Positions 5,911 through 32,420 of a stretch of DNA of 64,000 nucleotides are shown piece by piece (position 1 is the stretch's first letter; every line of letters starts with the position of its first letter). The notes below the pieces were generated by a model. That model did not search any database. It saw only the letters and a list, made by a program, of their open reading frames with translations, and was not told where the DNA came from. Origin of the DNA: Escherichia coli. Its GTDB lineage: Bacteria; Pseudomonadota; Gammaproteobacteria; Enterobacterales; Enterobacteriaceae. The stretch is from NCBI RefSeq assembly GCF_011045215.1, contig NZ_CP049201.1, one strand, 5' to 3'. A program made the position numbers and the translations under genes.

Positions 5911-6404
5911 CTACACCGCCTTATTAGGATCAAATGCGTCGCGGACGGCTTCACCAATAAAGATCAGCAAAGACAATAATATCGCCACCGACAAGAAGGC
6001 GGTGATCCCAAGCCACGGAGCCTGAAGGTTATTTTTCCCTTGTAACAGCAGTTCACCGAGTGACGGTGAACCGAGCGGCAGACCGAAGCCGAGGAAATCG
6101 AGTGAGGTCAGGGTGGTGATCGAACTACATAAAATAAACGGTAAAAAAGTGAGGGTAGCGACCATGGCATTTGGCAACATATGACGCAGGATGATACTGC
6201 GATCGCTGACGCCAAGCGCCTGCGCCGCACGAATGTAGTCGAAATTACGGGTACGTAAAAACTCCGCCCGCACCACGCCGACCAGACTCATCCAGCCAAA
6301 CAAGACAGTAATTGCCAGCAGCCACCAGAAGTTAGGCTGTACGACGCTGGAAAGTAAAATAATCAAAAACAGCGTCGGCATCCCCGACCATACTTCAATA
6401 AAGC
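5911..6404 (-). pseudogene. yejE: yejE remnant: only the C-terminal ~165 codons of the OppC/DppC-type permease, lacking its 5' half and native start
   Basis: The frame ending at 5911 encodes ...[23 protein letters not shown]...RAAQALGVSDRSIILRHMLPN...AVRDAFDPNKAV, i.e. the C-terminal TM region, EAA-loop region and C-terminus of an OppC-like permease. Upstream, the same frame runs into yejB-derived DNA. Expected intact length ~341 aa. The upstream boundary is approximate. Confidence 0.75.
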
Positions 6405-30390: not shown

Positions 30391-31440
30391 TTATGCGATG
30401 ACGCTTTGAATCACATAGTTAATCGCACCACCACCAACAATCAGCCAGGCAAACAGTACCAGTGCCATCAGCAGAGGTTTCGCCCCAGCTTTTTTCAGCG
30501 CGCTGACGTGAGTGGTCAGACCCAGCGCCGCCATCGCCATTGCCAGCAGGAAGGTATCCAGCGTTACCAGCATGTTCACCACGCTCTGCGGTAACAGGTG
30601 GAACGAGTTAAAGATGGCAACTACGATGAACAAGATGGCAAACCACGGAATAGTGATTTTGCTTTTCTCGCCGCTGTTCGCCCCAGACAGCTGTTTAACA
30701 CGCGCCGCCTGCAGGATGAGGAACGGAGCCAGCATCATCACGCGCAGCATTTTGGAAATAACTGCTGCGTTTTCCGCATCCGGGCTGATGGCATGACCTG
30801 CCGCCACCACCTGCGCCACTTCGTGCACAGTAGAACCAATGTAGATACCGAAAGTTTCCGGACTAAACCATTGAGACATCAGCGGATATATCGCCGGGTA
30901 GAGGAAAATCGCGACGGTCCCGAAGATAACAACGGTTGCAACAGCCACGGTTACTTTACTGGCTTCCGCTTTCACTACCGGCTCAGTCGCCAGTACCGCG
31001 GCAGCACCACAGATACTGCTACCGGCACCGATCAACCAGCTGGTGTGCTTATCCAGACCAAACACTTTCTGCCCCAGGAAGCAAGCCAGCAGGAAGGTAC
31101 TGGACAGCGTCAGCACGTCAATGATGATCCCACTGATACCGACATCGGCAATTTGCGAGAACGTCAGACGGAAGCCATAAAGAATGATACCCAGACGTAA
31201 TAAATATTGCTTGGCAAACAGCACACCACCGTCACAGCTTTTCCAGATGTGCGGATAGATGGTGTTGCCTAAAACCATCCCCAACAAGATTGCGAGGGTG
31301 AGGGCACTAAACCCGGCACCCGCAACCGCGGGAATGGAACCACCCCACAGGGCGACCCCGGTGATAACTGCACTCAGGGCTAACCCCGGAATAAAATGCC
31401 ACAGTGTACGATGTTGTTTCTGTAAGGTGATATTCGTCAT
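30391..31440 (-). CDS. yeiH: Inner membrane protein YeiH (UPF0324/PSE family)
   Basis: 349-aa polytopic ORF, divergent from the LysR-type regulator yeiE. Confidence 0.85.
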
Positions 31441-31538
31441 AACCCTCTCCTTTAACCGGGCATAAGGTTACGACTAACTGGTTTAAAAATAAAATTGATT
31501 ATATATTTATAATTAATCTTTATAAGTGGTAAGCGACT

Positions 31539-32420
31539 ATGCACATCACCCTCCGGCAGTTGGAAGTTTTTGCAGAAGTATTGAAAAGTGGATCAACCAC
31601 CCAGGCGTCGGTGATGCTGGCGTTGTCGCAATCAGCAGTGAGCGCAGCCTTGACCGACCTGGAAGGGCAGCTTGGCGTGCAACTGTTTGATCGCGTGGGG
31701 AAAAGACTGGTTGTTAATGAACACGGGCGGCTGCTCTATCCGCGTGCGTTGGCATTGCTTGAACAGGCGGTTGAAATCGAACAACTGTTTCGCGAAGACA
31801 ACGGCGCGATTCGTATCTATGCTAGTAGTACCATCGGTAACTACATTCTGCCTGCAGTTATCGCCCGTTATCGCCATGATTATCCGCAGTTGCCGATTGA
31901 ACTTAGCGTTGGGAATAGCCAGGACGTGATGCAAGCGGTGCTGGATTTCCGCGTTGATATTGGCTTTATTGAAGGACCGTGCCACAGCACTGAAATCATT
32001 TCTGAACCGTGGCTGGAAGACGAGCTGGTGGTTTTCGCCGCGCCGACTTCGCCGTTGGCCCGTGGTCCGGTCACCTTAGAACAGCTGGCCGCTGCGCCGT
32101 GGATCCTGCGTGAACGCGGTTCCGGCACGCGGGAGATTGTCGATTATCTGTTGCTGTCACATTTACCGAAGTTTGAGATGGCGATGGAATTAGGTAACTC
32201 CGAGGCAATCAAACATGCGGTGCGTCATGGGTTGGGAATTAGTTGCCTGTCGCGACGTGTGATTGAAGATCAATTGCAGGCAGGCACATTAAGTGAAGTT
32301 GCGGTCCCTCTGCCGCGCCTGATGCGTACGTTGTGGCGTATACATCATCGGCAAAAACACCTTTCCAACGCGCTACGGCGCTTTCTGGACTATTGCGATC
32401 CCGCAAATGTGCCGCGTTAA
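31539..32420 (+). CDS. yeiE: LysR-type transcriptional regulator YeiE
   Basis: 293-aa ORF; N-terminal LysR HTH ([22 protein letters not shown]), C-terminal substrate-binding domain. Confidence 0.9.

Follow-up and report, generated by a model that had tools for sequence, protein, structure and literature searches.

A conserved AT-rich dyad as the probable core of the YeiE operator in the divergent yeiH–yeiE promoter region of Escherichia coli

Where in the short spacer between yeiH and yeiE does the LysR-type transcriptional regulator (LTTR) YeiE bind, and does the AT-rich dyad found there serve the regulator, RNA polymerase or both? We approached this question by sequence comparison, starting from a window of 64,000 nucleotides of an E. 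coli chromosome that is 99.9% identical to K-12 across yeiH–yeiE. The spacer measures 98 bp and is bounded by the start codons of yeiH (CAT, last base 31440) and yeiE (ATG, first base 31539), and the regulator gene diverges from the regulated gene, the arrangement expected around an LTTR operator. The initial annotation had read yeiE as a LysR-family gene divergent from yeiH; its product indeed has the domains PF00126 and PF03466 and scores 534 bits against the NCBIfam equivalog NF040889 (cutoff 480). Together with this equivalog match, the residues described as binding sulfite in the Cronobacter protein, S96, N126, E145, R191, S195 and T197 (PMC8931317), place YeiE among the sulfite-sensing LTTRs. 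An Rfam scan of 31300–31700 returned no RNA family. A 10-nt direct repeat, CATAACCCTC / CATCACCCTC (9/10 identical), spans the yeiH start at 31438–31447 and recurs just inside yeiE at 31544–31553; this two-copy repeat is probably due to chance.

The regulatory logic of the pair is already known from the literature. Sulfite is the ligand of YeiE (Hong et al. 2022, PMC8931317), and sulfite-bound YeiE activates yeiH and partly relieves its self-repression. In Salmonella Typhimurium, Westerman et al. 2026 (PMC12880088) showed that purified YeiE shifts a fragment containing the spacer in EMSA, that PyeiE activity is higher in a yeiE deletion, and that sulfite induction of the yeiH promoter requires yeiE, PyeiH activity being undetectable without sulfite. 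For E. coli, the same authors cite from Gao et al. 2018 (PMC6237786) a strong ChIP-exo peak of YeiE in the regulatory region of yeiE itself. The proposals made from the window's letters, namely that YeiE controls yeiH and that it regulates its own gene, are therefore both borne out by experiment, the latter as autorepression. YeiE–YeiH has recently been described as the main sulfite tolerance route in Salmonella and is probably also that of E. coli, with relevance for food preservation and host colonisation. Published binding is at the level of fragments, the EMSA fragment (PMC12880088) being larger than the spacer and including 120 bp of yeiH coding sequence; our comparison confines the operator to 55 bp. 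The anatomy of operator and promoters that we propose (Table 1) is an incremental refinement of a known system and leaves the biological picture unchanged, but its half-sites, weak yeiH promoter and start sites make footprinting, point-mutant reporters and biosensor design straightforward.

Table 1. Coordinates of genes, predicted promoter elements and candidate operator elements in the yeiH–yeiE region
Feature	Positions	Strand	Remarks
yeiH	30391–31440	−	PF03601/TIGR00698 inner-membrane protein; regulated target
yeiH Shine-Dalgarno AGGAG	31447–31451	−	positions 94–99% conserved in the enterobacterial alignment
Predicted yeiH −10 TAACCT	31465–31470	−	inferred from register; implies start near 31458
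Phylogenetic footprint, 55 bp	31479–31533		nearly invariant across 77 sequences; comparable in size to an LTTR tetramer operator
Footprint sub-block A	31479–31494		
Proposed yeiE −35 TTAAAA (Shimada et al.)	31483–31488	+	mapped onto the window here; 19-nt spacer, longer than optimal
Predicted weak yeiH −35 TTTATT	31488–31493	−	3/6 match; 17-nt spacer; 3 bp from dyad
Footprint sub-block B (dyad); extended dyad GATTAT-N6-ATAAT(T/C), candidate core YeiE site	31497–31514		conservation; kept in L081 and L085
First dyad ATTATA-TATT-TATAAT	31498–31513		perfect 6-nt arms (ATTATA 31498–31503, TATAAT 31508–31513), 4-nt spacer
Second perfect dyad TTATAA-N7-TTATAA	31507–31525		canonical LTTR geometry T31510-N11-A31522; overlaps first dyad
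Dyad right arm TATAAT, likely yeiE −10	31508–31513	+	consensus; predicted by Shimada et al.; predicted yeiE start near 31520
Footprint sub-block C	31515–31533		
GGTAA, distal direct repeat of left half-site (GRTAW)	31528–31532	+	GATTAT is 31 bp (about three helical turns) away
yeiE	31539–32420	+	LysR-type sulfite-sensing regulator

Symmetry and conservation of the dyad

The dyad attatatatttataat, pointed out in the initial annotation as a candidate LysR-type box, is present at 31498–31513. Its centre at 31505.5 lies 65.5 bp from the yeiH ATG and 33.5 bp upstream of the yeiE ATG, about 11 bp away from the position of ~45 bp that had been assigned to it. The exact pattern occurs once in the 64-kb window, where 0.01 occurrences are expected. 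With 70% A+T in the spacer, this window-wide count is a less fair test than a local one, and we compared the spacer with dinucleotide-preserving shuffles of its own 98 bp. At least one perfect dyad with 6-nt arms and a spacer of 0–12 nt appears in 49% of the shuffles; from a single sequence the dyad is therefore unremarkable, and we rejected any claim of significance on that basis, which the window-wide estimate overstates. A larger imperfect dyad with 13-nt arms, AAAATTGATTATA / TATAATTAATCTT (31491–31503 / 31508–31520, 11/13 matching), arises in 4% of the shuffles and is marginally non-random locally.

The geometry T-N11-A, on which the LysR-type assignment had originally been argued, carries no weight: the spacer contains 12 such pairs and 10.7 are expected from its composition, so we discarded T-N11-A as an operator test. 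The first dyad has an even spacer and symmetric pairs T-N10-A and T-N12-A, and its axis consequently falls off any T-N11-A box. The second perfect dyad does have the canonical geometry (Table 1). Its centre at 31516 is displaced from the first by 10.5 bp, one helical turn; its left arm and 31522–31525 are invariant among Enterobacteriaceae, T31520 and T31521 only 64–68% conserved.

We aligned the spacers of 80 loci from more than 20 enterobacterial genera, with YeiE at 82–100% identity, and obtained 77 distinct sequences. They define a nearly invariant phylogenetic footprint of 55 bp, a proxy for the extended footprint of ~50–60 bp that an LTTR tetramer leaves, which divides into sub-blocks A, B and C. 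A run of 15 nt (31490–31504) shows no change in any of the 77 sequences, and all 12 arm positions of the first dyad are at least 97% conserved; the flanks at 31454–31478 and 31534–31538 vary freely. At 31514, 25 of the 77 relatives carry C, which completes a perfect extended dyad (TTGATTATA/TATAATCAA). Four-fold degenerate sites of yeiE in the same genomes served as a neutral control: none of 58 is invariant and the major allele has a mean frequency of 0.60 at these sites; along the yeiE coding sequence, invariant runs reach 5 nt at most. It is by this conservation across 77 sequences relative to neutral sites that the dyad gains significance. That it is a chance AT-rich palindrome without function, as the equivalent perfect dyads in 49% of the shuffles might suggest, is effectively refuted, because arms held invariant in 77 sequences stand against neutral yeiE sites of which none is; we give this reading next to no probability.

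On the yeiH side, the spacing between the footprint and the start codon hardly changes (in most loci, 57 nt separate TTGATT and CAT); on the other side, the footprint lies between 44 and 193 nt from the yeiE ATG, a variation of up to 149 nt. Part of this range is accounted for by ERIC-type insertions in Citrobacter. In L011 (1342–1466), and likewise in L016, L017 and L018, an imperfect palindrome of ~125 bp interrupts GTGGTA/AG at its TA; it agrees with the ERIC/IRU core at 37 of 44 positions. The insertion site coincides with the right edge of the conserved block; the yeiE ATG is pushed to 190 nt from the box and the distance from box to yeiH is unchanged. Shorter forms of the insertion (~59 bp) are found in L020 and L048.

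Promoter register in distant homologues

A search of 50%-identity cluster representatives yielded YeiE homologues at 47–68% identity, and for 12 of these we inspected the genomic surroundings. A gene of the yeiH family (PF03601) adjoins the homologue in 7 of these 12 contexts; in an eighth (L097), the neighbour is cut and has a YeiH-like N-terminus, as judged by eye only. The recognition helix Q31 S32 A33 x S35 x A37 L38 (QSAxSAAL) is invariant in the distant homologues, as are the sulfite-binding residues S96, N126, E145, R191 and S195, with T197 at least 90% conserved.

We aligned the upstream regions of homologues at 48–68% identity by anchoring them on the left half-site of the dyad. They share a register that begins on the minus strand with TANNNT, 17 nt, TTnnnn and 3 nt before the left half-site, and continues with GRTWAT (GATTAT in E. 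coli, 31497–31502), 6 variable bases, ATAAKY/ATMA and a second GRTAW at +31 bp. The left half-site is in register in homologues down to ~48% identity. The minus-strand TANNNT lies exactly 26 nt from it in 7/7 anchored lineages, and no other TANNNT offset is common to three or more of them; the product of TANNNT background frequencies over the six lineages outside Enterobacteriaceae is 1.5e-10. L097 was left out of these statistics because its anchor had been chosen circularly, from the −10 offset itself. The second GRTAW is found at the matching offset in 9 of 10 aligned lineages, and 31527–31532 are 92–100% conserved in Enterobacteriaceae. The full dyad GATTAT-N6-ATAATC is intact in L081 (68% YeiE identity) and L085 (53%), where the inner 6 bases differ, and right-arm symmetry is lost in the distant lineages L083, L095 and L096. 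As the right half is degenerate in other lineages, the left half-site together with the promoter register is the most deeply conserved feature of the region.

The partner gene is not the same in every lineage. In L095, a YeiE homologue of 48% identity is divergent from an anion transporter of the SLAC1/TehA family (PF03595, E 7e-66; 2–862 on the minus strand and 971–1879), and the spacer keeps the −10 / half-site register despite this exchange of YeiH for a SLAC1/TehA partner. The SLAC1/TehA family is associated with the yeast sulfite pump Ssu1. Other YeiE-like genes neighbour a rhodanese gene (L089, 181–537), a molybdopterin oxidoreductase gene (L092, 1–1445), or an Rrf2 regulator gene and an aminotransferase class V gene (L091, 1–1191); these sulfur-related or redox neighbours suggest that YeiE-like regulators have varied regulon partners. 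The YeiH called in L083 (782–1918) has 378 aa, compared with ~350 aa elsewhere, and since the predicted −10 falls nearly on the called start codon, the true start probably lies ~26–29 codons downstream.

Transferred to E. coli, the register predicts the −10 of yeiH at TAACCT, whose bases T1, A2 and T6 (A31470, T31469 and A31465) are invariant in the enterobacterial alignment, and a −35 at TTTATT, for which distant lineages have TTTACA, TTTACG, TTTTTA and similar hexamers. We infer from these elements that yeiH has a weak promoter from which transcription starts near 31458, a weakness that fits the undetectable uninduced activity of PyeiH (PMC12880088). Relative to this predicted start, the left half-site would be located at ~−41.5, the dyad centre at ~−47.5, block C at ~−58 to −74 and block A at ~−21 to −36, over the −35 region.

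RNA polymerase sigma-70 holoenzyme alone recovered the yeiE/yeiH spacer in SELEX (Shimada 2014, PMC3946193), and the same study predicted the promoters TTAAAA-19-TATAAT for yeiE and TTACCA-15-TATAAA for yeiH. In the former, the −10 is the right arm of the dyad. The latter we did not adopt, since by our own reading distant lineages do not keep its −10, whereas they do keep TANNNT at 31470–31465. A consensus sigma-70 scan of the region found no promoter with a 16–18 nt spacer: TATAAT is perfect on both strands, but a −35 at that distance is absent. Nothing passed in a terminator scan, and the supplement of the ROSE paper contains no mention of yeiH/yeiE. L088, a yeiH upstream region without a divergent yeiE, keeps the left half-site and register but has TATCAC in place of TATAAT, a single case that is consistent with a role of the right arm in yeiE transcription.

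These observations bear on an alternative in which the dyad is only promoter DNA, i.e., two TATAAT-like −10 hexamers on opposite strands of divergent, overlapping promoters, while YeiE contacts neighbouring sequence such as the second dyad (31507–31525), block C or block A. The perfect hexamers on both strands, the selection of the spacer by holoenzyme alone and the yeiE −10 on the right arm (PMC3946193) all agree with it, as do the true T-N11-A geometry of the second dyad, centred at ~−58 and nearer to the canonical −65, and a clean AACCT-N7-AGGTT dyad at the position of block C in L085/L087, where the arms are kept and the spacer changes. However, the comparative register puts the yeiH −10 at 31470–31465, off the left arm, which in L088 no longer reads as a minus-strand −10. 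G31497, and in deeper lineages C at 31514, are conserved although a −10 hexamer needs neither; the inner positions 31520 and 31521 of the second dyad vary freely, and the consensus scan detects no complete sigma-70 promoter. We therefore regard a purely promoter role of the dyad as unlikely. Its resemblance to overlapping −10 hexamers, remarked on in the initial annotation, has a basis in the right arm, which is the −10 that Shimada et al. predicted for yeiE. Probably both readings of the dyad, as regulator box and as −10 hexamer, are true.

Known LTTR systems and a model of the operator

The closest known system is the orthologous, likewise divergent YeiE–yeiH pair of Salmonella Typhimurium, with binding, autorepression and sulfite activation of yeiH (PMC12880088). 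Its spacer has 120 bp, compared with 98 bp in E. coli, the extra bases lying between block C and the yeiE ATG, and appears to share its core, aaaattgattatatatttataattaatctttataagtggtaag, with E. coli, as reconstructed from error-prone machine-read supplementary text. The S. arizonae representative (L012) has the right arm TATTAT. The ChIP-exo regulon of Gao et al. 2018 (PMC6237786) concerns the same organism, E. coli K-12, and the same protein, with a peak upstream of its own gene; that study derived a palindromic MEME motif and assigned YeiE to iron homeostasis, not sulfite.

In P. aeruginosa, FinR, a homologue of YeiE according to PMC12880088, is divergent from its target fprA and represses itself, and mutation together with EMSA proved its palindromic site between both promoters (Boonma et al. 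2017, PMC5302815). This site, TATCCA-N5-TGGATA at −46 to −83 of fprA, differs from the E. coli dyad in its odd spacer and true T-N11-A geometry, and it serves another target gene; the E. coli spacer contains neither TATCCA nor TGGATA. In L090 (49% identity), the predicted yeiH −10 TATGCT lies inside a palindrome with 10-nt arms, GATCAGCATA-N6-TATGCTAATC (1420–1455), which contains ATATCCA beside the −10 and recalls the FinR half-site TATCCA.

The three-site operators of BenM, CatM and CbnR (PMC11495319) share with the YeiE region the divergent LTTR gene, an operator of ~50–60 bp with a symmetric and weaker flanking sites, and autorepression by overlap with the regulator's own promoter; the shift of one dimer upon ligand binding is a further likeness that we propose for YeiE. 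Sub-blocks A, B and C, ~18–19 bp apart, recall their sites 1, 2 and 3. In those systems the most symmetric site is distal (~−65) and half-site spacing is odd, whereas in the YeiE region the most symmetric site is central (~−47.5 from the predicted start) and the spacing is even. LTTR recognition sites are typically found at ~−65 of the regulated promoter and activation sites near −35, and LTTR autorepression usually arises because the regulator occupies the −10 of its own promoter (PMC11495319). By symmetry and conservation the dyad looks like a recognition (anchor) site, and by position like an activation site; it is block C that sits where recognition sites usually lie, as counted from the predicted yeiH start.

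We consider it likely that the YeiE operator has the dyad as its core and lies within a compact region of divergent, overlapping promoters. A YeiE tetramer would occupy the 55-bp block 31479–31533, with one pair of DNA-binding domains on GATTAT-N6-ATAATY (31497–31514). The right arm would at the same time be the yeiE −10 TATAAT, so that occupancy of the dyad would occlude RNA polymerase there and account for autorepression. The left arm would stand 3 bp upstream of the weak yeiH −35 TTTATT, and the second pair of DNA-binding domains would contact block C (~−58 to −74) and/or block A (~−21 to −36). Sulfite would reposition this second pair in the manner of an LTTR sliding dimer, enabling RNA polymerase to use the weak yeiH promoter. 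A similar economy is found in IlvY–ilvC, where tandem operators of an LTTR lie within overlapping divergent promoters and one protein both represses its own gene and activates the neighbour; the pair differs in regulator, ligand and sequence, and the comparison is a lead only. The assignment of the dyad as a LysR-type box is plausible, strengthened by comparison: it forms the invariant core of the 55-bp footprint and its left half-site is kept in distant lineages.

The same block could be bound mainly by another protein, of the IHF, Fis, ArgR or CysB type, with YeiE contacting the EMSA fragment elsewhere. A virtual-footprint study predicts OxyR, ArcA, Fnr, IHF, ArgR and other sites upstream of yeiH (PMC7606416), Westerman et al. 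(PMC12880088) state that other cues must activate yeiE, and their EMSA fragment exceeded the spacer. The predicted sites are computational only, however; the IHF consensus WATCAANNNNTTR fits neither strand by eye, and the table of Shimada et al. gives no H-NS flag for the spacer (PMC3946193). Moreover, the block accompanies YeiE homologues and their exporter genes in distant bacteria, including L095, which points to the cognate regulator. Binding mainly by a different protein is accordingly very improbable.

A more far-reaching reading of the operator is possible but on balance doubtful: the 55-bp block may be a fixed-register switch module, conserved across Proteobacteria, that acts by a sulfite-driven dimer slide and also drives non-homologous exporters. 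Such a module would combine a weak exporter promoter, its −35 abutting the GRTWAT half-site, with a second GRTAW three helical turns away. In enterobacteria, the two overlapping dyads centred at 31505.5 and 31516 would share the yeiE −10, and sulfite would slide one YeiE dimer by ~10.5 bp between them; a single slide could then expose the yeiE −10 and at the same time bring YeiE into line with RNA polymerase at yeiH. We speculate that the one-turn offset of the dyads would suit a sliding-dimer switch of this kind. The module might likewise drive sulfite exporters unrelated to YeiH, such as the SLAC1/TehA type in L095, and, if true, it could serve for sequence-based prediction of the YeiE/FinR regulon.

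In Cronobacter, YeiE has a binding target in the cysJI promoter, and we scanned the counterpart upstream of cysJ in E. coli K-12 (L094, 6160–6477), where the best match to the motif has 4 mismatches, no better than shuffles. Within the queD–cysJ spacer of the same locus, 145 nt upstream of the cysJ ATG, AAAACAGGTTAG is followed by TCGAT (6333–6344); in a post hoc observation, AAAACAGGTTAG resembles block C near the distant yeiE genes of L083 (AAAACAGGTATATCGAT) and L085 (GAAACAGGTTAAT).
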